Source of the DNA: Candidatus Muiribacteriota bacterium | GTDB taxonomy: Bacteria; Muiribacteriota; Muiribacteriia; Muiribacteriales; Muiribacteriaceae | Assembly: GCA_051747805.1 (NCBI GenBank) | Contig: JBNJGP010000003.1 | Location: forward strand, 1 to 62,778 | Reading direction: 5' to 3' | DNA length: 62,778 bases | Shown: one piece after another, positions 1 to 47,677 of the stretch | How positions within the stretch are numbered: position 1 is the first letter of the stretch | Layout: each line of letters starts with the position of its first letter | Made by a program: the position numbers and the translations under genes | Notes under the pieces: generated by a model | The model's database searches: none | Told to the model about the DNA's origin: nothing | The model's input: only the letters and a program-made list of their open reading frames with translations

Positions 1-405
1 TCCCAGCGCCGCTACCATTTCTTTTACAAATTCTCTGGTATAAACCTGATGATGTGGTATTTTTAAGTCTGGATTTTCTATATTATAATCTTCAAAAAAA
101 AGAATATCTATATCTATTTCTCTCTCTCCCCACTTATGGGTTGTGCTTCTGCCTATTTCTTTTTCAATTATTTTAATTTTCTTTAAAATTGTCTCTGGAG
201 AAAATGTAGATTTAACCCCAATAAGCTGATTCAAAAAGTTATTCTGATTAACTACACCAACTGGTTTAGTACATTTAATAAGTCCTTGAATATAAATATC
301 ACCTAATTCTTTTTCTATGTAATTACGCGCCTCTTTTAAAAAAAAAGCGCTGTCACCTTTATTTGAACCAAGTAAAAATAATACTCTAAAATTCTTTTTA
401 TTCAT
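1..405 (-). CDS. folK: 2-amino-4-hydroxy-6-hydroxymethyldihydropteridine diphosphokinase (HPPK), 3' end runs off the window
   Basis: Not in the ORF track; translated by hand from ATG at 405: MNKKNFRVLFLLGSNKGD...WGEREIDIDIL...IPH, the HPPK motifs LGSN and R-x-I-D-I-D; follows folB. Confidence 0.9.
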   Translation of the reverse strand, partial: MNKKNFRVLFLLGSNKGDSAFFLKEARNYIEKELGDIYIQGLIKCTKPVGVVNQNNFLNQLIGVKSTFSPETILKKIKIIEKEIGRSTTHKWGEREIDIDILFFEDYNIENPDLKIPHHQVYTREFVKEMVAALG

Positions 406-428
406 GCTTTTCTCTTAATAAAAAATTT

Positions 429-800
429 TTATTCCTGTTCTTTTATTATTTCAATTTCGCTGTAGCCAGTCATCTCTGGAATAGGAACTTGTGGTTTTTT
501 CACACAAACTTTTATTTTTTGAACTATTTTATGGTTTGCCAGCACATAATCCGCTATTTTTTTAGCTAGTGATTCTATTAAAAAAAACTTAGTATGCTGT
601 ACCAGTTTTTTAATATTAATAAAAATCTCCTCGTAATTAATTGTATCATTTAAAGAATCTGAAATTGCTGCATTGTTTAAGTCAGCCTCCATTTCCAGTG
701 ATACAACAAACCGCTGTCCTACTTTCCTTTCAGCATCTCCAACACCATGATAACCATAAAAAACCATTTCATTAAGTCTTAATTTATAAAGAGTCGACAT
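429..800 (-). CDS. folB: Dihydroneopterin aldolase
   Basis: FYGYHGV, GQRFVVSLE, TINYEE, LIESLA motifs; position in the fol operon. Confidence 0.93.
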   Translation of the reverse strand: MSTLYKLRLNEMVFYGYHGVGDAERKVGQRFVVSLEMEADLNNAAISDSLNDTINYEEIFINIKKLVQHTKFFLIESLAKKIADYVLANHKIVQKIKVCVKKPQVPIPEMTGYSEIEIIKEQE

Positions 801-1975
801 TAAAAATCTCCTTTAAAAAACCAATCTGAATGTAATTTCATATTATGAACTCTTAAAAAATTAACCCCTTCAAAATACATTTTCTGCGAGAGAAGAAGTG
901 TATACATATCTTTTTGATAGTTGTTTTCAAGATTGAAAGTTTTTTTTAAAAAACTTTTTCTTGAACCTCCCACTAGAAGCGGGGAGCCCAGTTTCCTGAA
1001 CGAGTTTATTCTTGAAATAATTTCCCAGTTCTGCTTAACAGTTTTACCAAAACCGATGCCGGGGTCAATAATTATTTTTTTTGAATCATTTAAAACTTCA
1101 TGTAACTGATTATAAGAGTTTTCAATTTCAGTTAAAATATCAGAAACTATATTATTATAGTCTGTTTTTTGCTGCATATTTTCAGGGTTTCCTCTCATAT
1201 GCATTAAAACAAATGGACATTTCCAGCGTTTAACTAAATCTATCATTTTATCCGGGAGATTAACTCCGGATATACAATTAATAATATCGGCTCCTGCCTC
1301 AAAAGCTCTGTCGGCAACCTCGGGTTTACATGTATCTATAGAAATTGGTATGGGGGATATTTTTCTTATTTGTTTTATAATAGGAATTACCCTTTTTAAT
1401 TCTTCCTCAACCGAGACAGAAGCTGCACCCGGTCTTGAAGATTCTCCTCCAATATCAATAATAGAAACATTATTTTCAATCATTTCTTCTGCATTTTTTA
1501 AGGCTCTGGAAACATTGTAATTTTCTCCTCCGTCTGAAAAAGAATCTGGAGTTGTATTAATAATTCCCATAAAATAAGTTTGATTATTAATAAAAGTATA
1601 GTCCCTTACTTTAAAAAGTGTTTTATGGGCAATACTTTTAAGATAATTTTCAATTAATTTTAACTCTTTAAATAGAAAGCGCTGTTTTTGAATTTTAGAA
1701 ATTAATTTTTCGAAATTTCTTTCTGTTCCTGTTAAATAAACATCTGCCTTTTTAATACTTCCTCTCACTGCATCTGCCGGCAAAGCAGCATCACCGCCGC
1801 ATACAAGCATATCCTGTTTTAAAACAAGGGCTTTTGCAAGTGAAATACTTTTTAGCTCAACAACATAGCTCTTAAGCTTTTGTGATAATATTAACCTGCC
1901 TTCTGGGCTTACCTGATTTTCTTTAAAAAGAGATTTTAATAAATTTGTGTTGTTTGAAGCATTAAAAAAATTCAT
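800..1975 (-). CDS. folP: Dihydropteroate synthase with ~125-aa N-terminal extension (Helicobacter-type long FolP)
   Basis: MGIINTTPDSFSDGG, IDIGGESSRPG, DPGIGFGK, GSRKSF, LRVH motifs; N-terminal LVLKQDMLVCGGDAA extension. Confidence 0.93.
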   Translation of the reverse strand: MNFFNASNNTNLLKSLFKENQVSPEGRLILSQKLKSYVVELKSISLAKALVLKQDMLVCGGDAALPADAVRGSIKKADVYLTGTERNFEKLISKIQKQRFLFKELKLIENYLKSIAHKTLFKVRDYTFINNQTYFMGIINTTPDSFSDGGENYNVSRALKNAEEMIENNVSIIDIGGESSRPGAASVSVEEELKRVIPIIKQIRKISPIPISIDTCKPEVADRAFEAGADIINCISGVNLPDKMIDLVKRWKCPFVLMHMRGNPENMQQKTDYNNIVSDILTEIENSYNQLHEVLNDSKKIIIDPGIGFGKTVKQNWEIISRINSFRKLGSPLLVGGSRKSFLKKTFNLENNYQKDMYTLLLSQKMYFEGVNFLRVHNMKLHSDWFFKGDF

Positions 1976-1982
1976 TTTTTAT

Positions 1983-2543
1983 CTATTTTCCATATATCAA
2001 GGACATGGCCTCGTTTCTGGCCGCAATATCATTTTGAAAAATTCCTCTTACAGCCGAGGTTACTGTATGGGCTCCTGGAGTTTTTACCCCCCTGATTGTC
2101 ATACACATGTGTTCTGCAGAAATAACCACCATTACCCCAAGGGGATTTAATATTTTCATAATAGAATCAGCTATATCAGTAGTAAGTCTTTCCTGAAGCT
2201 GTAATCGTTTTGAAAAAACATTAACAAGTCTGGCAAGTTTCGACAATCCAGTAATCTGATTATTTTTAGGAATATAAACTACATGCGCTTTCCCTGTAAA
2301 AGGCATCATATGATGTTCACACATAGAAGAAAAAGGAATATCTTTAACTATTATCATCTCATCATGTGGCTCATTAAAAAAAATCTTTAAAATATTTTCA
2401 GGTTTTTCCTGAATTCCTGAAAAAAGTTCTTCATACATACGCGCAACCCTGTCGGGAGTGTCTTTAAGACCCTCCCGCTGAGGATTTTCACCTACTGCCT
2501 CAAGAATATCGCCAACTGCTTTTTTTATTTTTTCTTTATTCAT
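1983..2543 (-). CDS. folE: GTP cyclohydrolase I
   Basis: [44 protein letters not shown]; true start most likely ATG at 2543 (MNKEKIKK), overlapping the ftsH stop by 8 nt. Confidence 0.95.
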
Positions 2544-4467
2544 CTTCTGATGGTTTTTCCTTATCTTCAGATTCTTCCTTTTCTTCAGACTCTTTCGGTT
2601 CAACTTCTTCATTTTCAATTTCAGTAACTTTATTTTCTTCAAGTTCTTCACCGTCCATTAACTTATTAATCTGTTCACGGGAAAGAGTTTCAAATTTCAG
2701 TAATGCCACGGCAAGAGTTTCTAGTTTATCTTTATTTTCTGATATTATTTCTTTTGCACTATTATAACAATCAACAACAATTTTTTTAATTTCTTCATCA
2801 ATTTTCTGGGCCGTTGCCTCACTATAATCCTTGATCTGAGCCATTTCTTTGCCTAGGAATACATGCTGTTCTCTTTTTCCGAAGCTCAACGGACCAAATT
2901 CTTTACTCATTCCATAAACACAAACCATATTATGAGCAATATTTGTAGCAACAGCTATATCGTTTGAGGCACCGGTTGAAACAACATCAAAAACTATTTC
3001 TTCAGCAACCCTTCCACCCATTGCTTTTTTTATAATGCCATAAAACTGTTTTTCAGAATATAAATACCTGTCATCTTCCGGAATTGAGTGAGTAACCCCC
3101 AGCGCCCTTCCCCTGGGTATAATAGTTACTTTATGGAGAGGGTCACATTCTTTTACCATAAGTGAAATCAAAGCATGTCCGGCCTCATGATAGGCTGTTA
3201 TTTTCTTTTCATGTTCACTTATCACCTTGCTTTTTCTCTCAACTCCCATTGTCACTTTATCTCTTGCCTCTTCAAAATGTTTCTGTCCAATTTTCTTTAC
3301 ATTTTCTCTTGCAGCAAGTAAAGCTGCTTCATTTGCAAGATTTGCCAGATCTGCTCCTGATAATCCGGGAGTAGTTTTAGCAATTACTTTCAACTTAACT
3401 GTATCATCAAGCGGTATTTTTTTAGTATGAACTTTTAATATTTCATGTCTTCCTTTTATATCAGGTAAATCTACTACAATCTGTCTATCAAAACGTCCTG
3501 GTCTTAGCAAAGCAGGGTCTAATATATCTGGTCTATTTGTGGCCGCCATCACTACTATTCCGGTATTTGCCTCAAAACCATCCATATCAACCAGAAGCTG
3601 ATTAAGTGTTTGCTCTCTTTCATCATGACCGCCACCAAGACCGGCGCCTCTCTGACGACCAACAGCGTCAATTTCATCTATAAATACAATACATGGTTTT
3701 CTTTTTTCAGCCTGTGTGAAAAGATCTCTAACTCTTGAGGCACCAACTCCAACAAACATTTCTACAAAATCAGAACCGGAAATATGTAAAAAAGGTACTT
3801 TTGCCTCGCCTGATACAGCACGAGCAAGAAGAGTTTTACCTGTTCCGGGAGGGCCTACAAGAAGCACTCCCTTTGGAATTTGTCCGCCAAGTTTCTGGAA
3901 TTTTTTCGGATCTTTTAAAAATTCAATTACCTCTTCAAGTTCTGCCTTGGATTCATCACATCCGGCAACATCCTTAAAGGTGGTTTTCTGGGCGGAAGGG
4001 TCGCTGAATTTTGCTTTACTCTTACCAAAGGACATTGCCTTTGAACCAGCTCCGTTCATTTTATTTAAGATATAAAACCATATCATTATAAAAAATATAA
4101 AAGGAAACCAGTTAACCAGAAGTTCAAACCACCATGTAGTTTCAGGCTCGGGTTTAGCAATTAAATTCTGCGACTGAAATTCATCCAGTTCATCTGCTAA
4201 AATTTCAGAAAACATAGGGTGAATGGCTGTTTCAAACTTTTTAAAATCCATTCCTGTTGCGGGGTCAGTTTGCGGAGTAGAAAACTCACCTTTAACGTTC
4301 ATTCCTATAATTTCAAGCTTAGTAATATTGCCTGACCTGATTGTATCCTTAAACTCGCTGTATGATAACTCTTTAATTGCTTCATGAGTTAAAAAGTTGT
4401 TAAGTATAATAACTATTATAATTATTATTAATGCGTAAAATAAGACGTTTTTCATTCTTTTATCCAA
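2536..4467 (-). CDS. ftsH: ATP-dependent zinc metalloprotease FtsH
   Basis: Two N-terminal TM segments, Walker A GPPGTGKT, Walker B IVFIDEID, second region of homology, HEAGH zinc motif; TTG start with AGGAGG about 5 nt upstream; acidic tail. Confidence 0.97.
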
Positions 4468-5786
4468 AAGAGCCTCCTCTTAAATTTTAATACTAAATCT
4501 GTTTTTTTAAATTTTTTTATAAAAACCCCCGGTATCCAGATAATATTATTTTCAGAATCTGTCAATACAGGAATTCTATTTCTGATTAGTTTATTAATTT
4601 TTTTATCAATAAGCAACTTTTTCAGGGATTTATTTTTCGATATTTTATCACCCTTTTTTCGATGTCGCAACATTAAAGGCCATTTTAATTTTTTTGAGTT
4701 TATAGAAACAGAATTTTTTTCTATAAAAGAGACAGCTGACCTTGAAATCTTTATTAGTTGTGAGGAAAAATCAGAATCAGGAATTATTTCGTCTTCAAAA
4801 TCTGGATACTCCAGCTCAAAATAATCTTTATCAATTATTTCAAAGTATTTATAACAGTTAAAAAAAATGAAATTACTTAATATTATAAATTTTCCAGTAT
4901 TTTTTCCTGCCATTTTTATTATTTCGTTAATATTATTTCTATAAATACCCTTTTGTATTTTTAACTCCTTTTTAAAAAAATTATAAAAAAAAACTCTTTT
5001 TTTCCCTTTACTTATGCTGAAAAAATGTTTTTTAATAATGTATTTTTTATTTTTTTTTATTGTAAAAACAAAATCGTCAATACATCTATGATAAAACTCA
5101 AGAACCGCCTCTTCATAATCTGAGGCTCCTGAAGCCAGGTTTAAAATAGATTTTTTAATATTAGGGTTGATTTTTTGAATTGCGGGAAAAATTGAATTTC
5201 TAATCAGATTACGATTATACTTATTTTCAAAATTGGATTTATCCACACAAAAATCAATTTGTTCTTTTTTTAAAAAGTTTCTTATTTCCTGGGCCGACAA
5301 ATTTAAAACAGGCCGTAAAATTTTTTCATTATCCTTTTTTAATCCTCTTATACCACCTATACCGGCACCTCTTATTATGTTAAAAAAAACTGTTTCAGAA
5401 TTATCATCTGAATTATGAGCCACAGCTACTTTATCTAAATTTTTTTTTTCTAATAAATAATAAAAAAAATCATATCTATCATTTCTGGCCTTTTCCTGTA
5501 AATTATTTGTTTTAGAGTAATTAAGCTCTTTGTTAAAAAGAAAAACATTAAACTTTTCACACAATTTCTGGCAGAATTCAAGGTTTTGCCTTGAATCATC
5601 GCCCCTTAGATTATAATTAACGTGGGCGCAGCTTAAAAAGAAGTTTATTTTATTTTTAAGATTTAAAAAAACATGAAAAAGAAAAACAGAATCGGCTCCT
5701 CCAGATAAACCAAGGAGTATTTTATCATTTTTTTTTACAAGTTTATTTATTAGAAGTTCCTCAACAGTTTTTTCAATAAGTTTCAT
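4452..5786 (-). CDS. tilS: tRNA(Ile)-lysidine synthase
   Basis: PP-loop SGGADS, HVNYNLRG, AHNSDDNSET, RPVL, NRNLIRN, C-terminal TilS_C (LRHRKKGD...LKKLLID...RIPVL); upstream of ftsH. Confidence 0.95.
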   Translation of the reverse strand: MKLIEKTVEELLINKLVKKNDKILLGLSGGADSVFLFHVFLNLKNKINFFLSCAHVNYNLRGDDSRQNLEFCQKLCEKFNVFLFNKELNYSKTNNLQEKARNDRYDFFYYLLEKKNLDKVAVAHNSDDNSETVFFNIIRGAGIGGIRGLKKDNEKILRPVLNLSAQEIRNFLKKEQIDFCVDKSNFENKYNRNLIRNSIFPAIQKINPNIKKSILNLASGASDYEEAVLEFYHRCIDDFVFTIKKNKKYIIKKHFFSISKGKKRVFFYNFFKKELKIQKGIYRNNINEIIKMAGKNTGKFIILSNFIFFNCYKYFEIIDKDYFELEYPDFEDEIIPDSDFSSQLIKISRSAVSFIEKNSVSINSKKLKWPLMLRHRKKGDKISKNKSLKKLLIDKKINKLIRNRIPVLTDSENNIIWIPGVFIKKFKKTDLVLKFKRRLFWIKE

Positions 5787-6848
5787 TTACTGTTCAACAT
5801 TATCCTGATTTTCAGTTATTATTTCTTTATTTTTCTCATCAGCGTCCATAAGCTGTAATTCTTCACCAGCTGGTTCGCTTCTGTAAATAGCCCTGAAAAT
5901 TCTTTCAATTATAAATAGTATAAGAATAGGAACAAAAAAAGTATATCCAAAATATTCAACCCAGGACATATTAAAAGCCCTCTCTGAAGCAGCCGCAAAT
6001 CTATTTAAATTAAATAATATTAAAAGACAGCTAATCCATACAGTTACAAAATTTGGCCAGGCATCTGCAGAACGCATAAAATGAAGGCCGTTAAACCTCT
6101 CCTTGCTTATAGGCCAGTACAGGTTTGATCCCATATATCCCAGCTGATCTTCAAGCACATGTACACAAAATGCACCTGCAACAACAGTGCCATAAACCCA
6201 GGCATCAGGATTTCCAAGAAAATACATTATAAAATAAGCAAGTGCTCCAAAGAAAATACCAAGAGTAAGACTATGGCTCCATTTTCTATGCCAAGGAATA
6301 AACAAGGCTTCTACTTTATTTCCCAGTTTGCGGAAAGAAAAATCAGAACCACTGAAAATATCTATATAAGTTTTATCGTCATAAGAATGAAGAACGTGCG
6401 CGTTCAATTTAGCTCTGCCAACTTTTTTCCCCTGAAACTCAGTTCCAGGATATGGAAGTTTTGACATATTAACAACTGGTCCGATTTCCACAACAACCTC
6501 AGAGTTTTTATTGTCAAAATGAACGCTGTACTGTCTGTATAAATCAGCAGAAAGTTTGACTGAATGAAGCATTAAATTAACTTCAGTATCATTTTCATAA
6601 CTCTCATTTATAGCTTTGGCTACTACCTCGGCCATTTGCTGGGGGTCCATTTTTTCTGGATGAGGATCAACCTCATAGTCAAAAGATTGCATAAATTTTG
6701 CAAATTTAAAATCCAGCGTATCTGGTAATATTCCAAATAAACCTCCGATTGCGAGTATTATCGAATGCTCATTTGAACTCATTTGAACGGCTCTCTCAAT
6801 AAAAGTTGCCGCCGCTACTCCTGATATAAAATGTGAAATTCCTTTCAT
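5787..6848 (-). CDS. Membrane-bound metal-dependent hydrolase, YdjM/DUF457 family, with ~130-aa soluble insertion
   Basis: N-terminal SH, GILPDTLD, WHRKWSHS, HVLED, LYWP motifs with TM helices; start taken as ATG at 6848 (TAATG overlap with the upstream gene). Confidence 0.75.
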   Translation of the reverse strand: MKGISHFISGVAAATFIERAVQMSSNEHSIILAIGGLFGILPDTLDFKFAKFMQSFDYEVDPHPEKMDPQQMAEVVAKAINESYENDTEVNLMLHSVKLSADLYRQYSVHFDNKNSEVVVEIGPVVNMSKLPYPGTEFQGKKVGRAKLNAHVLHSYDDKTYIDIFSGSDFSFRKLGNKVEALFIPWHRKWSHSLTLGIFFGALAYFIMYFLGNPDAWVYGTVVAGAFCVHVLEDQLGYMGSNLYWPISKERFNGLHFMRSADAWPNFVTVWISCLLILFNLNRFAAASERAFNMSWVEYFGYTFFVPILILFIIERIFRAIYRSEPAGEELQLMDADEKNKEIITENQDNVEQ

Positions 6849-8164
6849 TATATTAACCCCAAAAATCCTGCAATCGCTGGACCACAACCCAGCATATTAC
6901 ATGTGATAGGAACAAGAAGTATTCCCATACAGTTCATTCTTCTTGAATGAAACATAACCGGAATTAACCCTATTCCAGTGCATACTATCATAATTGCAAT
7001 ACCATACCAGCCTGTTATACCAAGAACAATTAAAGTGATTATGGTAAGCGTTAGATAAGAAACATTCCTGTAATCGTATAGCTGAATGAATTTAATTGTA
7101 ACTTTTGATAAAAACAGCATTAAAACAAATGCTATAGCAGCAGAAATTCCAATATAACCAAGAATTCTATAATAAGGTTCAATTCCAAATGGTCTGTAAA
7201 TAGAGGAAGTCATCCAGGCCATACCCCCTCTTACCAGGGGAGAATTAGGAATAAACATTAATAAAAAAGCCCCTACATAGTAGGCAAATTTTGATACTCC
7301 CTGACTCATCACAAAAAGTCTTTCATCTCTCTGTGCGGTAGCATGACCGGCAAAAAGCCCTCCTATACCACCAGTAACAATAGGGAAAATTGCGGCAAAC
7401 ATTCCCCCAAGCATACCAGCTCCGGTTCCTCTTGAAACAAGCTCCCAGTTCATATTGATTGATTTAGCTATATGCTGCCTGGGTATGCTTGTATTTGATA
7501 TAATATTAGTTATAACCCAGGGAACGGCGTATAATCCAACAAAGGCAGGCATCAAATTCTGAAAAGCATACTCTTCGGGAACCATAGGTTTATAAATCAT
7601 AACAAAACCCAGTAATCCTGCAAGACACAAAGTAAAAAAACCTGCACTCATGGATTTCCAGCCGTTAATAAACTTCTGAAAAACAGTGCCTCTATCGCCG
7701 CCCTTCGGAAACTCTGAAACAATAATATAGGTGAGCACAACTGCGAGAATACCTCCCATATGAGACTGTAGAACTGTTCTTACAGTGCTTACAATCAAAG
7801 GTAAAAAAGGAGAAATCAACAGCATGGCAAAAGCAGCTCCAAGACCACCAATTCCAGTCAATACAGCAGCTTCAAACCCCCTACCCTGCATTAAATATTT
7901 CTGCCCCGGCAAAACCATAAACATTGCGGCTTCGTCAGGAGCACCTAAAAATATAGAGGGAACATTGTTTATAATTGAGTATCCAACAACCAGTCCAGTA
8001 ACGAGAGCAATAAAGTTTTCAGCACCAATAACAGAAATTTTTGTCCACAAAATAATAAGTAATCCTGCAACATTATATATATGTAATGCTGGAAGGCATG
8101 AAATAAAAGCCGAAAATAAGGTCCCAATTATTAGAAAAAACAACCCTGTTAGTAGAGGCTCCAT
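6848..8164 (-). CDS. TctA/DUF112-like (tripartite tricarboxylate transporter family) multi-pass permease, archaeal-type short form
   Basis: 438 aa, about 11-12 hydrophobic Gly-rich segments; LPALHIYN, VPSIFLGAPDE, MVLPGQKYLMQGRG resemble the TctA N-terminal signature. Confidence 0.7.
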   Translation of the reverse strand: MEPLLTGLFFLIIGTLFSAFISCLPALHIYNVAGLLIILWTKISVIGAENFIALVTGLVVGYSIINNVPSIFLGAPDEAAMFMVLPGQKYLMQGRGFEAAVLTGIGGLGAAFAMLLISPFLPLIVSTVRTVLQSHMGGILAVVLTYIIVSEFPKGGDRGTVFQKFINGWKSMSAGFFTLCLAGLLGFVMIYKPMVPEEYAFQNLMPAFVGLYAVPWVITNIISNTSIPRQHIAKSINMNWELVSRGTGAGMLGGMFAAIFPIVTGGIGGLFAGHATAQRDERLFVMSQGVSKFAYYVGAFLLMFIPNSPLVRGGMAWMTSSIYRPFGIEPYYRILGYIGISAAIAFVLMLFLSKVTIKFIQLYDYRNVSYLTLTIITLIVLGITGWYGIAIMIVCTGIGLIPVMFHSRRMNCMGILLVPITCNMLGCGPAIAGFLGLI

Positions 8165-9990
8165 TATCTAACCTCCTCAATATTTATCTGATTTGAATGA
8201 TTTGGAACAATCTCAATATCTCCTCTGAATACATCAACCTTTCCCTCAACAGTAATAAGCTGATTGTTGGAAAGATTACGAAGCTGCGGTTTATATTTTA
8301 TTATGTTATTCCATACAAGCAGAGTAACTCTTTCGTTATTATATCTCAAAGTATATTTTACGCCGTTATTTAGTTCGTCTCTGTCATAAACACGCCCTCT
8401 CAAATTTATAATCTCACCTTCCATTTCAGTTGTTATTTTATCAGTAAAAAATTCATCTTCAACCTGTACAGCTTTTGGAACTTCTTTTTGAACAACCTCT
8501 TTTTTATTAACTGTTAAATTTGAGGCCTCTTTTAAAACAAGCTGTGGTTCATCCCTGTATATCTCAACATAAGCTTTAACACTAACATGATAACCAGGCT
8601 CAAGATCTTCACTTAGATTTTTGATAACATCATCCCACATTATTAAATCAATTTCTCCATGAGCATACTCAAAAACACATTTTAATAAAGGGACACCGTT
8701 GGCTTCCAGATTAAATAACTCTTTAATATTACCGCTTACTTCTATAAACATTCCTTCGTCTTTCAGACTAATTTCCCTTTCTACTGTCCTCGCTTTTTTT
8801 TCAGGAATTTCATCAGTTTCGCCGGTCAGTTTAAAGTCCTGTGCAGTATTTAAAAGAAGTTGAAGCTGATTCTGAAAAACATTTGCCTGAATTACACCTT
8901 TAAAAAGGGCTCCTTTTCGCAAATCTGAGCCGTATATACTTCTTAAAGCCTCAAAAACATCATGCCAGATAGTCAAGCTGCTTCTATTCCCATATTCATC
9001 TACAATATTTATTTTATTAGGTGCCGCAGTTTCTGAGGGTTCAAGACTTTCTATAATTCCCTCAATTTCAAAATGCTGCCCCTCGTCTTCTGGGCGTATA
9101 TCAACAAACTCAACCTGTTCAATATTCATATAATCTGATATATCTTTACCCGGTTGAGGGGGGCTTTGAATTTCAAAGTTGGCAGGAAAATTTAAAAGAA
9201 GCTGTACATTATCTCTGAAAACATTAACTAAAATTCTTGACTTAAATTCAGCTCCAGGAGCAAAATCATTTCCCTCACGATTCATAATAATCTCAAGAAC
9301 ATTATCCCAGACAGTTAAATATCCTGTTTTACCCTCTTCTGACATGATAACAATTCTGCCTGGCCCAGTTCCGGTAGATGGTTCTATTCTTTTTATAATT
9401 CCAGAAATATAAAAATATCTTGATTCATCATGACTTGAAATTTCCCAGAAATTTTTATGTTGAATTTCTTCCCTGTCCTTAATTTTAAGATGTTGCGGAG
9501 CCTGTATAAAAAGAGATAAAGTTGATCCCTCATCCTTTATTCTAAAACTTCCAGAAATTTCAACTTCTTCCCCCGGAACAGGATCATTTCCAGCTTTAAG
9601 AATATCCTCTGCTATATTTGAATAAGCCATAATTCTGATTTCCTGATAACCTGTATCAACAGTAAAACTCAAACTACCAATACTACCAGACTCTCTGTAA
9701 AAAACATTAGGCTGGCCGACAACTTCTCCCTTAACTCTAACAAAAGCAAAATTCATAGTTTCGCTTATATGTTCATAATCAAGTTCCGGTATTTCTTTAT
9801 TAACTGCGGCAAGGTATATGAAAAAAACACCCATAACTGCAAGTATTAAGGAACCATATCTAAAAAATTTTAAACTTAACCTTTTATTTACTTCGGCCCC
9901 ACAGTAGGGACAACGTTCATAAGTTCCAGTAAATTTACCGCAACTGGGACAATGTGTTTCAACTGTTTCTTTTCTTTTATTTTTTGACAT
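8164..9990 (-). CDS. Membrane-anchored protein: N-terminal Zn ribbon, one TM helix, five tandem OB-fold-like repeats
   Basis: CPSC-x9-CPYC; hydrophobic segment at aa ~45-63; five ~90-aa repeats with G.I/V, L.(V/I)W.(D/N), (F/Y)R..(Q/E)(L/I) pattern typical of nucleic-acid-binding OB folds. Confidence 0.7.
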   Translation of the reverse strand: MSKNKRKETVETHCPSCGKFTGTYERCPYCGAEVNKRLSLKFFRYGSLILAVMGVFFIYLAAVNKEIPELDYEHISETMNFAFVRVKGEVVGQPNVFYRESGSIGSLSFTVDTGYQEIRIMAYSNIAEDILKAGNDPVPGEEVEISGSFRIKDEGSTLSLFIQAPQHLKIKDREEIQHKNFWEISSHDESRYFYISGIIKRIEPSTGTGPGRIVIMSEEGKTGYLTVWDNVLEIIMNREGNDFAPGAEFKSRILVNVFRDNVQLLLNFPANFEIQSPPQPGKDISDYMNIEQVEFVDIRPEDEGQHFEIEGIIESLEPSETAAPNKINIVDEYGNRSSLTIWHDVFEALRSIYGSDLRKGALFKGVIQANVFQNQLQLLLNTAQDFKLTGETDEIPEKKARTVEREISLKDEGMFIEVSGNIKELFNLEANGVPLLKCVFEYAHGEIDLIMWDDVIKNLSEDLEPGYHVSVKAYVEIYRDEPQLVLKEASNLTVNKKEVVQKEVPKAVQVEDEFFTDKITTEMEGEIINLRGRVYDRDELNNGVKYTLRYNNERVTLLVWNNIIKYKPQLRNLSNNQLITVEGKVDVFRGDIEIVPNHSNQINIEEVR

Positions 9991-10025
9991 TTTATTACCT
10001 TCCTTAAAAGAATTTCAATATTTGA

Positions 10026-10054
10026 ATTATATTTTATTTATTCAACTTTTGCAA
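10026..10054 (-). promoter_or_regulatory. Sigma70-type promoter for the OB-fold/TctA/YdjM/tilS/ftsH/fol operon
   Basis: Minus strand TTGCAA (10054-10049), 17-nt spacer, TATAAT (10031-10026); AAGGAAGG RBS before the ATG at 9990. Confidence 0.7.
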
Positions 10055-10058
10055 CGTA

Positions 10059-10304
10059 TTAATCTCTTTCTGGGTATTTATTATAAAAAACCTTTTCTAA
10101 ATCTATTCCACGTACATTTGCTGCTGATATTAAAAACGCTAAAACATCGGCAAATTCTTCTTCTTCGTTTTTTCTATCGCCTTTTCTAACAGCTTTTAAA
10201 AGCTCACCAACTTCTTCAGAAAGCCAGCACAATGTTTCAGAAATAGGTCTTTCTAAATCGCTTTCTCCAAATAATTCTTTTATATGATTTTGATATTTTT
10301 TCAT
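10059..10304 (-). CDS. MazG-like nucleotide pyrophosphohydrolase domain protein
   Basis: WLSEEVGELLKA...EEEFADVLAFL, the EExxE...EExD all-alpha NTP-PPase motif. Confidence 0.85.
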   Translation of the reverse strand: MKKYQNHIKELFGESDLERPISETLCWLSEEVGELLKAVRKGDRKNEEEEFADVLAFLISAANVRGIDLEKVFYNKYPERD

Positions 10305-10345
10305 ATTTTTCTAAACTCTTTTAAATTAATGCCGATAATAAAGCT

Positions 10346-10417
10346 GGTACAACTAATTCTATATTAGTTGTTTTACCCTCTCTTTCGGTGTATCGTTTTA
10401 CGGTACACCTTTTTTTT
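10346..10417. other. Two adjacent hairpins between fabH and the mazG-like gene
   Basis: CAACTAAT/ATTAGTTG (10350-10370) and GGTGTATCG/CGGTACACC (10387-10409); the second is followed by a T-run on the plus strand. Confidence 0.5.
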
Positions 10418-11396
10418 ACCATTTAATTAAAAGGCTTGCCCAGGTAAGTCCGCCACCAAAACCGGCAAGAATAATATAATCATCCTTTTGTATTTTACCG
10501 TCTTTTAGAGCTTCATGAAGTGCTATTGGTATAGTGCCAGCAACTGTATTACCATATCTATCCAGGTTTATATATAGTTTATCAAAAGAAATACCGGCTT
10601 TTTTAGCTCCGGATTCCAATATTCTAACATTTGCCTGATGAGGTATAACAATTTTTAATTTCTCTGGGCTTATTTGATTTCTCTGCAACAGTTTTTTTAT
10701 CATACGGGGAAAAACTCTCTGGGAAAACTTAAAAACTTCTTTCCCGTTCATTTTAAAATAATGATCTCTATTTTCAACTGTTTCTTTAGACGCAGGTTTT
10801 TTAGATCCTCCTCCCGGCATTATAATTAATTCTGCTCCTTTTCCATCAGCACCAGCGGTCCAGTCAATAATTCCAGAACCTTCCTCGCAGCTTTCAATAA
10901 CGGCTGCCCCGGCACCGTCTCCAAAAAGCACGCATGTGCCTCTGTCTTCGAAATCCAGAATTCTAGAACAGGTATCAACTCCAACAACAAGTATTTTTTT
11001 ATATGTAGAGTTTTTTATAAACTGAGTTGCCGTAATCAATGAGTAAACAAAACCCGAACAGGCCGCCTGTACATCATAGGCCCACGCATTCTCAGCACCA
11101 AGCTTACCCTGTAATATGCAAGATGTAGAGGGGAACGGATAATCAGGAGTATAAGTCCCGACAATTATCATACCAAGTTCTTCTGGCTGTGTATTTGAGT
11201 TTCGCAGAGCCTCAAGAGCAGCCTTATATGCTAAATCAGAGGAGGCAACGTCTTCTGAGGCAAATCTTCTCTCTTTTATGCCACTTCTTGAAACAATCCA
11301 TTCATCTGTCGTATCAACAATTTTTTCCATATCTTTATTTGTTACTCTTTTTTCCGGTAAAAAACTTCCTAAACCAGATATTTTAACTCCTGTCAT
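10416..11396 (-). CDS. fabH: 3-oxoacyl-ACP synthase III
   Basis: TTDEWIVSRSGI, AACSGF (catalytic Cys), PHQAN, GNT, GFGGG. Confidence 0.96.
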   Translation of the reverse strand: MTGVKISGLGSFLPEKRVTNKDMEKIVDTTDEWIVSRSGIKERRFASEDVASSDLAYKAALEALRNSNTQPEELGMIIVGTYTPDYPFPSTSCILQGKLGAENAWAYDVQAACSGFVYSLITATQFIKNSTYKKILVVGVDTCSRILDFEDRGTCVLFGDGAGAAVIESCEEGSGIIDWTAGADGKGAELIIMPGGGSKKPASKETVENRDHYFKMNGKEVFKFSQRVFPRMIKKLLQRNQISPEKLKIVIPHQANVRILESGAKKAGISFDKLYINLDRYGNTVAGTIPIALHEALKDGKIQKDDYIILAGFGGGLTWASLLIKW

Positions 11397-11408: not shown

Positions 11409-12458
11409 TTATTTAAATAATTTTTCAAGTTCTTCAAACTGAACTTTTTCTGCAATTAATAATCCCATTTTTTTCATTCTATCATAATCTTTTATATTTA
11501 CCATCGAATAGGCTGAATGTATGTATCTACAGGGCGCCGCCAGCACCGCACAAGGAAGACCGTTTTTAGCCAGATGGAGTTTCCCCCCATCTGTTCCTCC
11601 GGCATTTCTAGGCTGTTTATACTGAGTTTTTATTTTATTTTTATCGCTAAGATTTTTAACAAATTTAGCCAGTTTTTTATCAGCAGCCATAGAACGGTCA
11701 AAAAGTGTTAAAGCTGGTCCTTCTCCGGTTAAAGTTGACCAGTTGTCAGATTTATTCCCAGGAGTATCCAGTGAATATGTTCCTTCGAAAATAAAAGCAT
11801 ATTCGCCTTCCGCTGTTTTGGATACAACTTCTGCCCCTCTTAAACCAAGTTCTTCCTGACATGTAAAACATAAAATAATATCAAAATCAGGTTTTTTTGA
11901 AATTTTTGAGGCAAGATTACATAAAACTGCAACCCCGAGTCTATCATCAAAAGCTTTTGCTTTATAAAAATTGCCAACTTTTTCAAATTCGGTGTCAAAA
12001 GTACCATAAGTTCCCAGCTCTATTCCTTTTTTCTCAAGTTCTTTCTTGCTCAATCCAGTATCTATAAAAAGCGAGGATATTTCCACCCCTTTTTCTTTAC
12101 CTCCCGCATGAGGCGGGTTAATTCCAATTATACCTTTAACAATCTCATTATTTTCACCCAGCATAACTACCCGGGAATTAGGCAGTACTTTAGGGTCAAT
12201 TCCGCCAACCGTAATAAACCTGATAAAACCTTTATCATCAATGTTTGAAGCCATGAAGCCAACCTCATCCATATGAGCTGCAAATATTACTTTTTTATTC
12301 TTTTTTCCATTGATTTTTGCGTAGAGATTTCCAATTTTATCTTTTTTAATTTCGGATACAGACGAACATTTTTTTAAAAATTTTTCAACCCATTTTTTCA
12401 CAGGCGCCTCGTTTCCAGCCGGTCCGTATAAATTGGTAAGTTCCTCTAAAATTTTCAT
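11409..12458 (-). CDS. M42 family metallo-aminopeptidase
   Basis: AAHMDEVG, KAFDDRLG, QEELGLRGA, GGTDGG, RYIHS. Confidence 0.92.
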   Translation of the reverse strand: MKILEELTNLYGPAGNEAPVKKWVEKFLKKCSSVSEIKKDKIGNLYAKINGKKNKKVIFAAHMDEVGFMASNIDDKGFIRFITVGGIDPKVLPNSRVVMLGENNEIVKGIIGINPPHAGGKEKGVEISSLFIDTGLSKKELEKKGIELGTYGTFDTEFEKVGNFYKAKAFDDRLGVAVLCNLASKISKKPDFDIILCFTCQEELGLRGAEVVSKTAEGEYAFIFEGTYSLDTPGNKSDNWSTLTGEGPALTLFDRSMAADKKLAKFVKNLSDKNKIKTQYKQPRNAGGTDGGKLHLAKNGLPCAVLAAPCRYIHSAYSMVNIKDYDRMKKMGLLIAEKVQFEELEKLFK

Positions 12459-12542: not shown

Positions 12543-13367
12543 ATGAATAATATAATACTTTTATCTAAAAAAAACAAAAAAAATATTTACCGGTTTCTTA
12601 ATAATTTTCCGGTTTCATCACTTTATATTTATAAAAATCTAATCAAAAACGAGATTAAAAACCAAGGTAATCCAGAGGATGCAGATTATTACGGGTATTT
12701 TGAAAAAAATCAATTAAAAGCTATAGCAGCTTTTTTTAATGCCGGAATTTGCCTAATATCATCTAAAGTTAAGAGAAATTCTTTATTTCAGAATATTATT
12801 TTTCAAAAAAAACCGCTGTTTATTCTTTCATTTAAAAATTCACTCCCGGACGATATGAAAAAAAATATAATTAAAAATGAAGTTTTCATGATTAGAAGAA
12901 CTAATAAACAAACACATATTTCAAAACCTTACACTTCAATTGCTACAATGAAACATTTGGATTGTCTTATTGAGCTTAAAAAAAAATTTGAAATAGATTA
13001 TTGGAATTATATTCCTACACAAACTCATTTGGAAGAATACAGGAAAAATTTAAAAGAAAAAATTTCAAAAAATCATGTTATTATATCAAAAAAATTTAAT
13101 ATTATAAATGGATTTGGTGTAATTGAAACAGATTCACCAAAAATAAATCTGCTTGGAAGTATTTTCGTTGATAAAAAATATAGAAAAAATGGCATAGGAA
13201 AAGAAATAACCCGCCATTTAATTAATCTTACTGTAAAAGAAAACAAAATATGTGCTTTATCTGTAATTTCTGAAAATAAAACAGCCTTAAAAATTTATAA
13301 AAAGGAAAACTTCTGTCCAGTTTCTAATTTGTCTTTAGTAGAACTTCCAGAAGAAGCGACCACGTGA
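12543..13367 (+). CDS. GNAT family N-acetyltransferase (tandem GNAT-like fold)
   Basis: C-terminal IFVDKKYRKNGIG acetyl-CoA motif and NKTALKIYKKENF. Confidence 0.8.
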   Translation: MNNIILLSKKNKKNIYRFLNNFPVSSLYIYKNLIKNEIKNQGNPEDADYYGYFEKNQLKAIAAFFNAGICLISSKVKRNSLFQNIIFQKKPLFILSFKNSLPDDMKKNIIKNEVFMIRRTNKQTHISKPYTSIATMKHLDCLIELKKKFEIDYWNYIPTQTHLEEYRKNLKEKISKNHVIISKKFNIINGFGVIETDSPKINLLGSIFVDKKYRKNGIGKEITRHLINLTVKENKICALSVISENKTALKIYKKENFCPVSNLSLVELPEEATT

Positions 13368-14365
13368 CATGCCACAAAATGATTATCTTTATATTCAAGC
13401 ACCTCTGGCATTTTTTTGAGACATATTTCCTGCTTATAAGGACATCTAGTATTAAAAGGACATCCCGGTGGTTTTTTTAATGGGCTTGGGACATCTCCTT
13501 TCAGCTTTATTATTTTCTTTTTTTCTTTTCTTGGGTTTGAATTTAAAACAGCAGACAACAAGGCTTTTGTATAGGGATGCAGTGGATTTGCAAAAAGCTC
13601 TTCAGTTTTAGCACTCTCAACAATACAACCCAAATACATAACCGCAACCCTGTCAGAGATATGTTTAACAACGCTTAAATCATGTGCAATAAATAAATAT
13701 GTAAGTTTATACTCATTCTGTAAATCCCGGAGCAAATTTAGAACCTGGGCCTGAACAGAAACATCAAGGGCGGAAACAGGTTCATCAGCTATGATAATTG
13801 AAGGTTTAAGCGCAAGCGCACGGGCTATTCCAATCCTCTGTCTCTGACCTCCAGAAAACTCATGAGGATATCTGTCCACAGCAGACCTTTCAAGTCCTAC
13901 TTTTTCTAAAAGCTCCTGAACTAAATTACTTCGAACAATTTTGTTTTTTCCAATATTATTTATAGAAAGGGGTTCCTCAACAATTTTACCAATTTTCATT
14001 TTTGGATTTAAAGAAGCATATGGATCCTGAAAAATCATCTGAGCTTTTTTTCTTATGAACTTCTTTGTTTGAGAGGTATTTGCGCTTATATCAATTACCT
14101 TTTCGTTATCATAATCAATAAAATTAATAGTACCGGAGGTAGGTTTTAATAAATTTATCAAGGTGCGCCCTGTTGTAGATTTTCCGCATCCTGACTCACC
14201 AACAATAGCAAATGTTTCGCCTTTTCGAAGTGAAAAAGAAATATTATCAACAGCTTTTATCTCACTTGTTTTTTTAAAAAAAAGACCATGATAAACTGGA
14301 AAAAACTTTTTTAATTTTTTTACATGAAGTAATATATTTTTTTTTTTATAATCATTAAAGCACAT
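13295..14365 (-). CDS. Oligopeptide/dipeptide ABC transporter ATP-binding protein (OppF/AppF type)
   Basis: GESGCGKST, YPHEFSGGQRQR, ADEPVSALD, HPYT, C-terminal oligo_HPY domain (GCPFNTRC). Confidence 0.93.
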   Translation of the reverse strand: MCFNDYKKKNILLHVKKLKKFFPVYHGLFFKKTSEIKAVDNISFSLRKGETFAIVGESGCGKSTTGRTLINLLKPTSGTINFIDYDNEKVIDISANTSQTKKFIRKKAQMIFQDPYASLNPKMKIGKIVEEPLSINNIGKNKIVRSNLVQELLEKVGLERSAVDRYPHEFSGGQRQRIGIARALALKPSIIIADEPVSALDVSVQAQVLNLLRDLQNEYKLTYLFIAHDLSVVKHISDRVAVMYLGCIVESAKTEELFANPLHPYTKALLSAVLNSNPRKEKKKIIKLKGDVPSPLKKPPGCPFNTRCPYKQEICLKKMPEVLEYKDNHFVACHVVASSGSSTKDKLETGQKFSFL

Positions 14366-14437
14366 CTTTTTTCCTCTGTAATTTGAAAGTTACATTAAAT
14401 GTTTGCGATAATCAAGATTTTTTCTATATTAAACCCA

Positions 14438-16093
14438 CTAATTTATAAGGGTGCGATAATTTATAAACCATTCAGAAATATCATTTAATCCTGATTCATG
14501 AGCTTCTACACCATTTATTTTTCGATTAATTGCCTCCAGTACAACATCAATATACAAAAAAGTATAGGGATTTTCTTCGACAATTATACTATGCACCTCA
14601 TGATAACATTCTCTTCTTATATCTCTGTCAAAAGTTTTTCTGGCTTTATCCAACAAATAATCTACTCTTTCATTTGAATAATTTATAAAATTAAGTTCAC
14701 CCTCTGTATGCCAAATATTATAAATATCAGGATCAACTTCTAATTTCCAGCCTACCAGCACAGCATCAAAATCACGCTCATATAAATATTCTTCAATCAA
14801 AACGTTCCACGCAACCTGTTTTATATTTACTTTTATTCCGATATCCTTTAGATTACGCTGTATAAATTTTAATGCCATGTTTCTTACCGGTTGACCCCGG
14901 CTTATAACTACATCAAATTCAAAATTTTTTCCATTTTTTTGAAGCAATCCATCCCCGTTTTTATCTTCCCAACCATTATTCTTTAAAGTTTCTCTGGCTT
15001 TTTCAGGATTATATTCAAAAAACTCAACATCCTGATTATAGGCCCATGAATGTGGCAGAAAAGGCCCATTTGAGATTATTCCATATCCTTCCAGAACTCC
15101 ATTAACCAGTTCTTTTCTGTTAATTGCCCTGGTAAGAGCTTGACGAACTTCTTTATTTTTAAAAAGTGGATTATTGTAATTATAACCGAGATACATATAA
15201 TGATTACCGTTATACTTTACAGGTTTGATTTTTTCAAGCTCATCTGCGCTCTGTAAAAAACTTGTAAACTGAGTCGGGGTTAGTTTCGCCCGGTCAATTC
15301 TTTCAAGCCGGGTATCAAGATAAACTATACTCTGATCAGGAACAATTGTATAAATAATCTGTTGAATAAAAGCCTCTTTTGAATGATATTCCTTATTGAC
15401 CTCAAGAATTATTCTTTCATCAGGAATATAAGTATTTAATTTATATTTACCTGTTCCAACAGGTTTCATATTTTCAGACGCTTTTAAAAAAAACTCAGAA
15501 TTAAGCTCATCTTTCCATATATGTTCTGGAATGATTTTTGCCCTCCATATATCAATGGTCCGTGCAAAGGGTTCTTTATAAGATACTTTGAAAGTAAAAT
15601 CATCAAGAACGTTTAAACTTCTTATATAATCAAAATCTGAATAAAGCTGACTGACCTGACTTTCATGACCGTTCTCTTTAAAAGACATTATAGCCTCATA
15701 AGTGAACTTAACATCTGCACAAGTAAACTTTGCTCCGTCATGCCATTTTACATTTCTTTTTAAATGAAAAATAATATCAAGTCCATTATTTACTATTTCC
15801 CATGATTTAATAAGCACGCCCTCAAGTTCTTGCTCTTTGTTATATTCAACAAGCCCTTCATAAATTCTATCAGAGACTTCTCCAGAGCTCACATCATTAA
15901 TAAGAAGCGGATTTAAAGTAACAATATCTCTTGTTAAAGCCTGAACAAGAAACCCCCCTTTCTGAGGAACTATTTCCGCCTCCCGCCTGCTCTGACCAAC
16001 ATCAGTATCCTCTTCAGATGAATCTTCAAAACATGCGCTTGTTAAAAATAAAAAAAGCACTAAAAAAAGGATTTTTATATTTTTTTTATTCAT
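14438..16093 (-). CDS. Peptide ABC transporter substrate-binding lipoprotein (family 5, AppA-like)
   Basis: Lipobox LTSAC; TLNPLL, IYEGLV, VKWHDG, PVGTGKYKL, VRQAL motifs. Confidence 0.9.
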   Translation of the reverse strand: MNKKNIKILFLVLFLFLTSACFEDSSEEDTDVGQSRREAEIVPQKGGFLVQALTRDIVTLNPLLINDVSSGEVSDRIYEGLVEYNKEQELEGVLIKSWEIVNNGLDIIFHLKRNVKWHDGAKFTCADVKFTYEAIMSFKENGHESQVSQLYSDFDYIRSLNVLDDFTFKVSYKEPFARTIDIWRAKIIPEHIWKDELNSEFFLKASENMKPVGTGKYKLNTYIPDERIILEVNKEYHSKEAFIQQIIYTIVPDQSIVYLDTRLERIDRAKLTPTQFTSFLQSADELEKIKPVKYNGNHYMYLGYNYNNPLFKNKEVRQALTRAINRKELVNGVLEGYGIISNGPFLPHSWAYNQDVEFFEYNPEKARETLKNNGWEDKNGDGLLQKNGKNFEFDVVISRGQPVRNMALKFIQRNLKDIGIKVNIKQVAWNVLIEEYLYERDFDAVLVGWKLEVDPDIYNIWHTEGELNFINYSNERVDYLLDKARKTFDRDIRRECYHEVHSIIVEENPYTFLYIDVVLEAINRKINGVEAHESGLNDISEWFINYRTLIN

Positions 16094-22068: not shown

Positions 22069-22482
22069 TTAACTACAAACTCCTGTTCGACATTGAAATT
22101 TTTTTAAATATTTTTCCTGCAAATTAAACATTTCTTTTTCGCCATCCTTATCATCATGATTATAACCAATAATATGAAGAAGACCATGTATGATTACCCT
22201 CAGTCTCTCTTCCTGAAAAGAAACTTTATTATTAACGGCATTTTCCCTGACAATATCCTCACAGATAATTACATCGCCAAGTAAATCTTTTGAACACTCT
22301 GGGAAATCCCCCTCTTTCATACTGAAAGAAAGCACATCTGTAGGTTTATTAATATTTCGGTAATTAAAATTTAATTCTTTAATTTCTTCTTTTGAAACAA
22401 AAGAAATATCTACAACCATTTTTTTATTATATTTCAGAGAAATAATTTCTTCTTTTAAATTATTTAACAACGATTCATTCAT
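22069..22482 (-). CDS. ybeY: rRNA maturation endoribonuclease YbeY
   Basis: YRNINKPTDVLSF, LGDVII, HGLLHIIGYNH (H3xH5xH). Confidence 0.95.
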   Translation of the reverse strand: MNESLLNNLKEEIISLKYNKKMVVDISFVSKEEIKELNFNYRNINKPTDVLSFSMKEGDFPECSKDLLGDVIICEDIVRENAVNNKVSFQEERLRVIIHGLLHIIGYNHDDKDGEKEMFNLQEKYLKKFQCRTGVCS

Positions 22483-37615: not shown

Positions 37616-37682
37616 ATAAAAATCCTCTGGGTTAATTATTTCATAAAACTGAAGCGAAAGTCAAGTTTAAAAAAGACTGTTA

Positions 37683-45393: not shown

Positions 45394-45409
45394 TTATTTC
45401 CCCTCCATA

Positions 45410-47669: not shown

Positions 47670-47677
47670 TACTCCCC

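Follow-up and report, generated by a model that had tools for sequence, protein, structure and literature searches.

A conserved bacterial gene trio encoding an OB-array protein, a TctA-like permease and a YdjM-like hydrolase, and its likeness to an archaeal transformation gene pair

Results

Three overlapping genes upstream of tilS

The 62,778-nucleotide (nt) stretch of contig JBNJGP010000003.1 (assembly GCA_051747805.1) of a Candidatus Muiribacteriota bacterium, referred to as the window, carries on its minus strand a trio of genes for an OB protein (8164-9990), a TctA-like permease (6848-8164), and a YdjM-like protein (5787-6848). Since the arrangement recurs in dozens of unrelated genomes, it is far from chance, and the trio is a conserved bacterial module. 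Its features and the adjoining context are listed below with the evidence for each (aa, amino acids; ORF, open reading frame).

8164-9990, minus strand: gene 1, membrane-anchored OB-array protein, 608 aa (ORF; PF01336 and PF13742; AlphaFold2; Foldseek)
9901-9951, minus strand: zinc ribbon CxxC-N9-CxxC of the OB protein, residues 14-30, predicted cytoplasmic
9802-9858, minus strand: single transmembrane helix of the OB protein, residues about 45-63 (hydropathy; AlphaFold2 helix 38-64)
8167-9783, minus strand: five tandem OB folds, predicted extracytoplasmic (AlphaFold2 secondary-structure pattern)
6848-8164, minus strand: gene 2, divergent TctA-like permease of the archaeal COG1784-like branch, 438 aa (full-profile PF01970)
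5787-6848, minus strand: gene 3, YdjM/DUF457-like membrane metal-dependent hydrolase, 353 aa (PF04307, E=3e-17; AlphaFold2)
6270-6698, minus strand: inserted soluble alpha/beta domain of the YdjM-like protein, residues about 51-193, predicted cytoplasmic
4452-5786, minus strand: tilS, a context gene outside the module (PF01171, TilS_C, TIGR02432)
10059-10304, minus strand: upstream MazG-like ORF of 81 aa, a context gene outside the module (PF03819)
10026-10054, minus strand: promoter-like TTGCAA-N17-TATAAT upstream of the OB gene (10/12 consensus match)

The stop codon of the OB gene and the start codon of the TctA-like gene form a TAATG overlap with base 8164 in common, ahead of which lies GAGGAGG at 8172-8178. 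The TctA-like and YdjM-like genes are joined in the same way at base 6848, and the YdjM-like stop codon abuts the tilS start codon (TAA-ATG at 5787/5786). A preliminary description of this DNA had given the same three genes, overlaps and tilS junction, and the sequence confirmed both coordinates and junctions. The length of the YdjM-like gene was counted from the ATG used by all homologues; the mechanical ORF list reaches a TTG at 6887. The next gene after tilS is ftsH (2536-4467), and folE and folP may be expected to follow it by analogy with the Muiribacterium locus (L001). No convincing minus-strand terminator between the genes was found in the region scanned. The promoter proposed in the preliminary description is present and is the top promoter-like match within 2400-10500. 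Nevertheless, since such matches are common in AT-rich DNA (37 were found in the scanned region and 29 were expected by chance), this site is plausible and is not counted as evidence.

Conservation of the trio across bacterial phyla

The permease alignment was used to scan one genome per species (185,579 species), and 474 confirmed stretches were obtained. The locus counts and flank statistics were taken from the best 80 of these 474 stretches, all of which belong to metagenome-assembled genomes (MAGs). Hidden Markov models built from homologues were run on the ORFs of each locus, and loci with enough flank were counted as evaluable. The best 80 came from Muiribacteriota, Verrucomicrobiota, Kiritimatiellia, Lentisphaerae, Chloroflexota, Planctomycetota, Chlamydiota, Spirochaetes, Wallbacteria, Neomarinimicrobiota, and UBP18, and the carriers are mostly anaerobic heterotrophs of sediments, digesters, and rumen. 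An OB gene was located upstream on the same strand in 62 of the 66 evaluable loci. A YdjM-like gene was located downstream in 59 of 67, directly adjoining the TctA-like gene in 53. The complete trio, with order and strand unchanged, was present in 45 of the 55 loci evaluable on both sides, and the synteny of the three families extends over many phyla.

The surroundings of the trio are far less constant. Muiribacterium halophilum has the same MazG-OB-TctA-YdjM-tilS-ftsH-folE-folP arrangement as the window, while an Ozemobacteraceae contig carries the trio between unrelated genes, with amidase and BamD-like genes in its flanks. Exceptions to the trio order occur mainly in Chloroflexota, where genes are intercalated or the YdjM-like gene is elsewhere and a second, shorter OB gene is often present, and in Brocadiia, where a lipoprotein-like gene occupies the upstream OB position. 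All-against-all clustering of the flanking genes of the 80 loci revealed no fourth recurrent partner, and a Pfam census of 122 flanking proteins returned scattered themes only. In the preliminary description, the neighbouring MazG-like gene and a pilMNOPQ locus had been brought into connection with the trio. Neither link was supported. The linkage of tilS/ftsH and MazG to the trio is confined to Muiribacteriota, and pilM (PilM_2), pilN, pilO, and the secretin gene (pilQ) lie at 57460-61685 on the minus strand, 47 kb from the trio, and never adjoin it in the bacterial loci. MazG, tilS/ftsH, and pilMNOPQ were therefore rejected as module parts, as their linkage is lineage-specific or absent. The position of pilP in the pil cluster is taken by a 227-aa ORF without a Pfam match.

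In other phyla the permease and the hydrolase are 45-55% identical to those of the window, against the fast evolution of the OB protein. Matches to the two proteins were often on contigs of equal length. This far better conservation of the two proteins could reflect strong constraint or horizontal transfer. In four Chloroflexota loci (L007:8411-11788, L009:10055-13297, L027:9140-12241, and L074:7496-9901), the YdjM-like gene is followed by a gene for a protein of approximately 1000 aa with PLD-like domains, two to three lamin-tail domains, and sometimes DUF11. This protein may act together with the module as a phosphodiesterase or nuclease at the cell surface. In one Verrucomicrobiota locus (L023:4419-10978), two copies of the trio lie in tandem. 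The YdjM-like gene of the first copy is truncated and the OB gene of the second is short, through either duplication or faulty assembly.

The OB-array protein

Pfam matches were judged against the curated cut-offs. The OB protein matched PF01336 (tRNA_anti-codon) with 54 bits against a cut-off of 27 (E=1.4e-14), and also matched PF13742. Its AlphaFold2 model, based on an alignment of 11 sequences, had a predicted local distance difference test score (pLDDT) of 81.5 and displayed five beta1-2-3-alpha-beta4-5 units at residues of about 70-172, 176-278, 290-392, 400-496, and 520-608, in agreement with the five OB folds counted in the preliminary description. When the model was compared with the PDB by Foldseek, the top match was the p204 HIN domain at 8e-16, followed by RPA70, CTC1, LEF-3, Teb1, TEBP-alpha, and Pyrococcus RPA. 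The matches to HIN-200, RPA70, CTC1, LEF-3, and Teb1 span E=8e-16 to 1e-8. Since most tandem OB arrays in the PDB bind DNA, matches to tandem-OB DNA binders are partly expected.

The zinc-ribbon residues C14, C17, C27, and C30 are nearly invariant across homologues, and the ribbon spacing and the single helix are kept in nearly all full-length OB homologues across phyla. The N-terminal 37 residues have an isoelectric point (pI) of 9.1 and the sequence past the helix is acidic, from which the array is predicted to be extracytoplasmic and the zinc ribbon cytoplasmic (N-in, C-out). The OB domains had been taken for nucleic-acid-type folds outside the cytoplasm, and the resemblance of the model to RPA- and HIN-type DNA binders and the predicted outward orientation both favour that assignment.

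The OB protein is fast-evolving, and a word-indexed search gave 11 matches, all from Muiribacteriota or Ozemobacteraceae. The membrane-proximal OB1 is its most conserved unit. Homologues have between 1 and 5 or more OB units, a variation in keeping with a polymer as ligand. The surface nuclease YhcR of Bacillus subtilis likewise has extracytoplasmic tRNA_anti-type OB folds of the same Pfam family, and one homologue (P0006) bears a Joint Genome Institute (JGI) product name of the YhcR type. However, the window protein consists of anchor and OB array only and is devoid of the nuclease/nucleotidase domain.

The TctA-like permease and its separation from classical TctA

The permease matched PF01970 over profile positions 1-422 of 423 with 107 bits (cut-off 28.9; E=9.1e-31), while none of the NCBIfam models matched it. 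It is 50-55% identical to its homologues in other phyla. A search with the permease-clade profile returned 1798 proteins at E<=1e-3 among 1.84 billion representatives. The only matches of a tblastn search against 72,556 plasmids were two cyanobacterial homologues linked to OB genes, 22-25% identical along their whole length; no further TctA gene was retrieved. The few profile matches and the only two plasmid matches therefore set the permease apart from canonical TctA; judged by its sequence, it is not a classical TctA and forms a separate family.

Next after the bacterial clade come proteins of 390-411 aa, archaeal wherever named. Names were looked up for 30 clusters of matches from the representative search and comprised Thermococci, Woesearchaeota, Hydrothermarchaeales, Aenigmatarchaeota, and 'archaeon'. 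The archaeal relatives align over the full length with 23-29% identity and 17 invariant positions, and the motifs common to bacterial and archaeal permeases include PGxH, IPSxFLGAPD/E, LPGQ/H, G.G.EA, FPAxxGLFG, and RSG. Makarova et al. (2015) equated arCOG04469 with COG1784 and PF01970 and guessed carboxylate transport as its function (PMC5898192).

The absence of a neighbouring TctB or TctC partner, as stated in the preliminary description, was upheld for the loci covered, although a TctC gene could be located elsewhere in the genome. None is encoded by the trio in the window, none recurs in the flanks of the 80 loci, and the TctB and TctC families are absent from the 25 listed of the 96 Pfam families that matched the 122 flanking proteins. 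The large membrane subunit of TctABC matches PF01970 over its whole length, as the window permease does; however, the partners of the latter are an OB array and a YdjM-like enzyme, and it does not cluster with canonical TctA. Two possible fusions were found in the representative library. In P0336, a zinc ribbon and helix are joined to a TctA-like permease, and in P0282, OB-like repeats are joined to a TctA-like permease. Their domain order would fit a physical complex in which the N-terminus of the permease lies outside. Both may be genuine Rosetta-stone fusions, or the usual overlap of 1-4 nt may have given rise to frameshifted gene calls.

The YdjM-like hydrolase

The YdjM-like protein matched PF04307 with 63 bits (cut-off 29). 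Its AlphaFold2 model (pLDDT 90.1) has six membrane helices, the second and third of which are separated by an alpha/beta domain of about 140 aa. This bears out the inserted domain of the preliminary description. The residues invariant in the family are H6, D43, D46, K48, H187, R188, H192, H230, E233, and D234; when an archaeal member is included, they are H6, D46, K48, W186, R188, H192, H230, and D234. All the conserved residues are located at the same helix ends as the inserted domain. Among 44 homologues, the mean K+R in the short segments was 9.8 on the insert/catalytic side versus 1.1 on the opposite side. The positive-inside rule would thus place both the insert and the catalytic cluster on the cytoplasmic side. 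The preliminary description had ordered the events as capture, cleavage, and import. An active site facing the cytoplasm argues against cleavage before import, and an inward-facing hydrolase fits an order of capture, import, and processing better.

Foldseek comparison of the YdjM-like model with the PDB gave no match below E=0.1; some weak C2-domain rows were disregarded owing to root-mean-square deviations of 16-18 Å. PDB sequence searches with each trio protein and with the family profiles yielded nothing usable. We take the YdjM family to be a member of the phospholipase C/P1 nuclease clan of Pfam. No biochemical work on this family was found in the literature searched, and one apparent 'DUF457' match was rejected as it actually concerns DUF4579 in a paper on CRISPR Cap1. 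The YdjM genes are regulated by LexA/SOS in Escherichia coli and Staphylococcus aureus, and the family has been described as uncharacterised, with a possible phospholipase function suggested (PMC11442139). The inner-membrane YdjM/YbcI (DUF457) proteins of these two species have PF04307 and the conserved His/Asp residues in common with the window protein. Unlike them, the window protein has a soluble insert of about 140 aa and is encoded in a fixed operon with OB and TctA-like genes.

Archaeal and plasmid relatives of the OB/TctA-like pair

Distant homologues of the permease gene also adjoin genes for membrane-anchored PF01336 OB proteins, on two cyanobacterial plasmids (L084 and L085) and in three archaeal loci (L086, L088, and L089). 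These loci and two further distant ones are as follows.

L086 (Thermococci), 310-5631: MinD/ParA, prepilin peptidase, pilin with a class-III signal, 197-aa anchored double-OB protein, TctA-like permease, Prok-JAB
L088, 1-5194: prepilin peptidase, three small genes, pilin with a class-III signal, DUF2101, 125-aa anchored OB protein, TctA-like permease
L089: convergent 121-aa OB gene adjoining a TctA-like gene
L090 (divergent): minimal trio of a 169-aa protein with ribbon, helix, and one OB unit, a permease, and a YdjM-like protein
L091 (labelled Euryarchaeota): TctA-like, YdjM-like, then Prok-JAB
L084:4201-8379 (Cylindrospermopsis plasmid) and L085:3853-6347 (Pseudanabaena plasmid): distant OB/TctA-like pairs

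In both L086 and L088, the OB/TctA-like pair and the prepilin-peptidase and pilin genes, with MinD/ParA in L086, form a single cluster on one strand. The double-OB gene of L086 overlaps the permease start, and the OB protein of L088 matched PF01336 at 2.7e-10. The YdjM-like protein of L091 retains H6, D46, K48, H192, H230, and D234. In both cyanobacterial plasmids, the gene immediately upstream of the permease gene codes for a membrane-anchored protein containing two OB folds of PF01336, and the pairs lie near AbiEii or toxin-antitoxin genes; in L084, a 586-aa coiled-coil NERD nuclease-related protein is encoded downstream of the permease. A Prok-JAB (JAMM-type) gene is present in two of the archaeal loci (L086:5242-5631 and L091:3854-4234).

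An OB/TctA-like pair of archaea has been studied genetically. Fonseca et al. (2023) carried out a transposon screen in Methanococcus maripaludis for mutants no longer capable of natural transformation (PMC10133366). Two adjacent genes emerged, MMJJ_13020, encoding an OB protein with a single helix, and MMJJ_13030, encoding a TctA-like protein; in-frame deletion of either abolished transformation, and complementation restored it (PMC10133366). Deletion of the TctA-like homologue of Methanoculleus thermophilus also abolished transformation, and the TctA-like protein was proposed as the missing archaeal DNA transporter (PMC10133366). The same screen also gave type IV-like pilus genes, the EppA prepilin peptidase gene, a MinD-like ATPase, and a thermonuclease (PMC10133366). 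The pilin and prepilin-peptidase genes of L086 and L088 and the MinD/ParA gene of L086 belong to gene classes recovered in that screen.

The archaeal pair (arCOG04469/COG1784) resembles the window locus in having an anchored PF01336-type OB gene directly upstream of the TctA-like gene, and at least one archaeal MAG likewise has a YdjM-like gene. The window version differs in being bacterial, in having five OB units rather than one or two, in the additional cytoplasmic zinc ribbon, in a permease insertion of about 17 aa, in the YdjM-like third gene, which is unmentioned in the archaeal study (PMC10133366), and in the lack of pilus genes nearby. In the literature searched, no mention was found of bacterial homologues, of a YdjM-like partner, or of any follow-up of the archaeal pair, nor was any single paper found that links TctA and YdjM. 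The system had been put forward as undescribed in the preliminary description. For the bacterial trio with its YdjM-like member this stands as far as the literature searched is concerned, but the archaeal OB/TctA-like pair was already described genetically in 2023.

Other features of the window

The G+C content is 0.34-0.39 over the YdjM-like and TctA-like genes (5501-8500) versus 0.25-0.28 over tilS, and the AT skew flips sign. The rise probably reflects the codon content of membrane proteins and strong conservation, and it gives no clear sign of transfer. The genes upstream of the trio encode FabH (10416-11396), an M42 peptidase (11409-12458), and a GNAT acetyltransferase (12543-13367, plus strand). 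Muiribacterium halophilum has these genes in the same order, together with an MgtE gene that the window lacks. An oligopeptide ABC transporter ATPase and a family-5 solute-binding protein are encoded at 13295-16093 on the minus strand. Also on the minus strand are genes for a 7TM receptor whose intracellular part is an HD hydrolase domain and for two diguanylate cyclases of the GGDEF type, of which one also has a GAF domain (22482-24587 and 36056-39674), as well as two tandem sets of [FeFe]-hydrogenase large subunit and Nuo51-like flavoprotein genes with a third HydA-like gene (42061-49462 and 51916-53232). The window organism looks like an anaerobic, hydrogen-producing fermenter. No ComEC-like gene was found among the ten large window ORFs scanned.

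Discussion

A candidate module for nucleic-acid uptake

The best-supported interpretation of these comparisons is that the trio would be the bacterial counterpart of the archaeal transformation pair. With moderate confidence, we propose that the three proteins act as one module of the cytoplasmic membrane for the uptake of extracellular nucleic acid, most likely DNA. Nucleic-acid uptake is favoured because the pairing of an OB gene with a TctA-like gene is unusual and common to two domains of life, because the OB family is of a nucleic-acid-binding type and varies in copy number, and because the archaeal genetics tie the pair to transformation (PMC10133366). Moreover, the neighbours are recurrently of nuclease or phosphodiesterase type, namely the YdjM-like protein (the window and L091), the NERD protein (L084), and the PLD-like/lamin-tail proteins (four Chloroflexota loci). 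The SOS/LexA regulation of YdjM genes in E. coli and S. aureus (PMC11442139) is counted on the same side, as are the possible fusions P0336 and P0282. Nucleic acid was the leading substrate guess of the preliminary description, and it gains support from the finding that the nearest outside relatives of the permease are paired with OB genes, a pair essential for transformation in Methanococcus (PMC10133366).

In the proposed mechanism, the single helix of the OB protein would anchor it in the membrane and the five OB folds outside would bind the polymer, with OB1 probably docking on the permease. The permease, a secondary transporter of the TctA fold, would give or energise the passage of the polymer across the membrane, and the putative metal-dependent hydrolase would process the incoming material at the cytoplasmic face. 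True DNA import of the transformation type is a tentative step beyond nucleic-acid uptake, possible but doubtful at present. It is similarly a speculative proposal that the trio is a ComEC-independent DNA import machine, shared with archaea and present in at least ten bacterial phyla, in which the TctA fold has been turned into a polymer translocase. In such a machine, the OB array, anchored with its zinc ribbon, would pass a DNA strand on to the permease, and a phosphodiesterase would act at the cytoplasmic exit; the ComEC layout would thereby have been re-invented convergently in the form of three proteins.

ComEC follows the same three-part logic as the trio, with an external OB fold, a polytopic membrane part, and a metal-dependent phosphodiesterase. 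However, the trio consists of three separate proteins without homology to it, and the likeness is an architectural analogy only. None of the three proteins matched the ComEC domains (Competence PF03772, the DUF4131 OB domain, and metallo-beta-lactamase) at E<=0.01. The nuclease domain of ComEC is understood to work outside the cytoplasm on the strand that is not translocated (PMC12455585), whereas the hydrolase of the trio is predicted to face the cytoplasm.

Several points weigh against uptake of nucleic acid by the trio. The substrates of TctA and related secondary carriers are small anions, and we know of no precedent for a DNA strand passing through a TctA-type fold. With a pI of 4.4-5.8, each of the five OB units in the window protein is acidic, an unusual property in a DNA binder; the ectodomain pI of homologues ranges from 4.1 to 9.8, with values of about 4.2 in Chloroflexota. 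The predicted cytoplasmic position of the YdjM-like active site leaves a ComEC-like degradation of one strand outside unsupported. Judging from the gene junctions, the trio in the window appears to be co-transcribed with housekeeping genes, unlike typical regulated competence genes, and no pilus or competence gene adjoins the trio in the 80 bacterial loci. In our judgement, the identity of 45-55% across phyla is much above that usual for competence proteins. The bacterial members are known from their genes alone. The connection to the MMJJ genes is drawn from family membership (PF01970, COG1784/arCOG04469 per PMC5898192) and architecture rather than from a direct alignment, and none of the 30 permease-relative clusters with names looked up contains a Methanococcus member. 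In addition, the archaeal mutants could be defective indirectly, for example, via pilus function.

Alternative explanations

One alternative is that the module scavenges small phosphorylated or anionic compounds, such as nucleotides or short oligonucleotides freed by surface nucleases. The OB array would then be a binding or concentrating subunit, the TctA-like protein an ion-coupled carrier, and the YdjM-like protein a hydrolase of the imported phosphoester at the inner face. The small-anion carrier fold with its full PF01970 profile, the predicted cytoplasmic orientation of the hydrolase, and the apparently constitutive expression of the window trio with housekeeping genes are in keeping with such a role, as are the anaerobic heterotrophic life of most carriers in sediments, digesters, and rumen and the [FeFe] hydrogenases of the window organism; the PLD-like/lamin-tail and NERD neighbours could be the external nucleases. 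We nevertheless regard it as unlikely, since a polymer is a better match than a small ligand for arrays of one to five OB units and the archaeal homologues are needed for transformation, which takes long DNA. The same PF01970 match, together with the guess of Makarova et al. for arCOG04469 (PMC5898192), would allow a tripartite tricarboxylate transporter-like carrier of organic acids with odd subunits, in which the YdjM-like protein replaces the TctB scaffold and the OB protein replaces TctC as a receptor for something other than nucleic acid. This is improbable, because the permease family is far from canonical TctA, the YdjM-like protein has retained, as invariant positions, the His/Asp residues that characterise metal enzymes, the OB units belong to the nucleic-acid type of PF01336, and the archaeal genetics point elsewhere.

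An outward function in the envelope is about equally improbable. In this case, the YdjM-like protein would act like a phospholipase on inner-leaflet lipids or lipid-linked precursors, the permease would export or flip the product, and the OB array would handle a surface polymer. In its favour, a possible phospholipase function is annotated for YdjM proteins (PMC11442139), conservation of both permease and hydrolase is very strong, the window trio shares an operon with ftsH, the Ozemobacteraceae flanks hold amidase and BamD-like genes, and PLD-like neighbours occur in Chloroflexota. On the other hand, no envelope-biogenesis neighbour recurs among the loci, and the archaeal phenotype is specific to transformation. 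Several of the carrier phyla are typically diderm, and the module is present in Chloroflexota and archaea as well as in such phyla, so that no envelope polymer is obviously shared. A module for defence against phages or plasmids, sensing or degrading incoming DNA at the membrane, could be read from the location of the cyanobacterial homologues on plasmids near AbiEii, toxin-antitoxin, and NERD genes. The chance of this is very small, since no component of the trio matched any PADLOC model, the chromosomal bacterial loci have no defence-island context, and the window trio is in a housekeeping operon.

Significance

What is new is a bacterial three-gene version of a system known only genetically in archaea. 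How DNA passes across the archaeal membrane is an open question, for which the TctA-like/OB pair is the sole candidate, with genetics in two methanogens. The locus described here shows the same pair in many mostly uncultured bacterial lineages with a fixed hydrolase partner. Compared with the archaeal work, it adds a comparative set (invariant residues, OB number, and possible fusions), a third component, and bacterial hosts. If the module takes up nutrients instead of DNA, it would be a new type of binding-protein-dependent secondary transporter. If DNA uptake is true, the module would be a second bacterial route besides ComEC and would bear on gene flow in anaerobic sediment, digester, and rumen communities.

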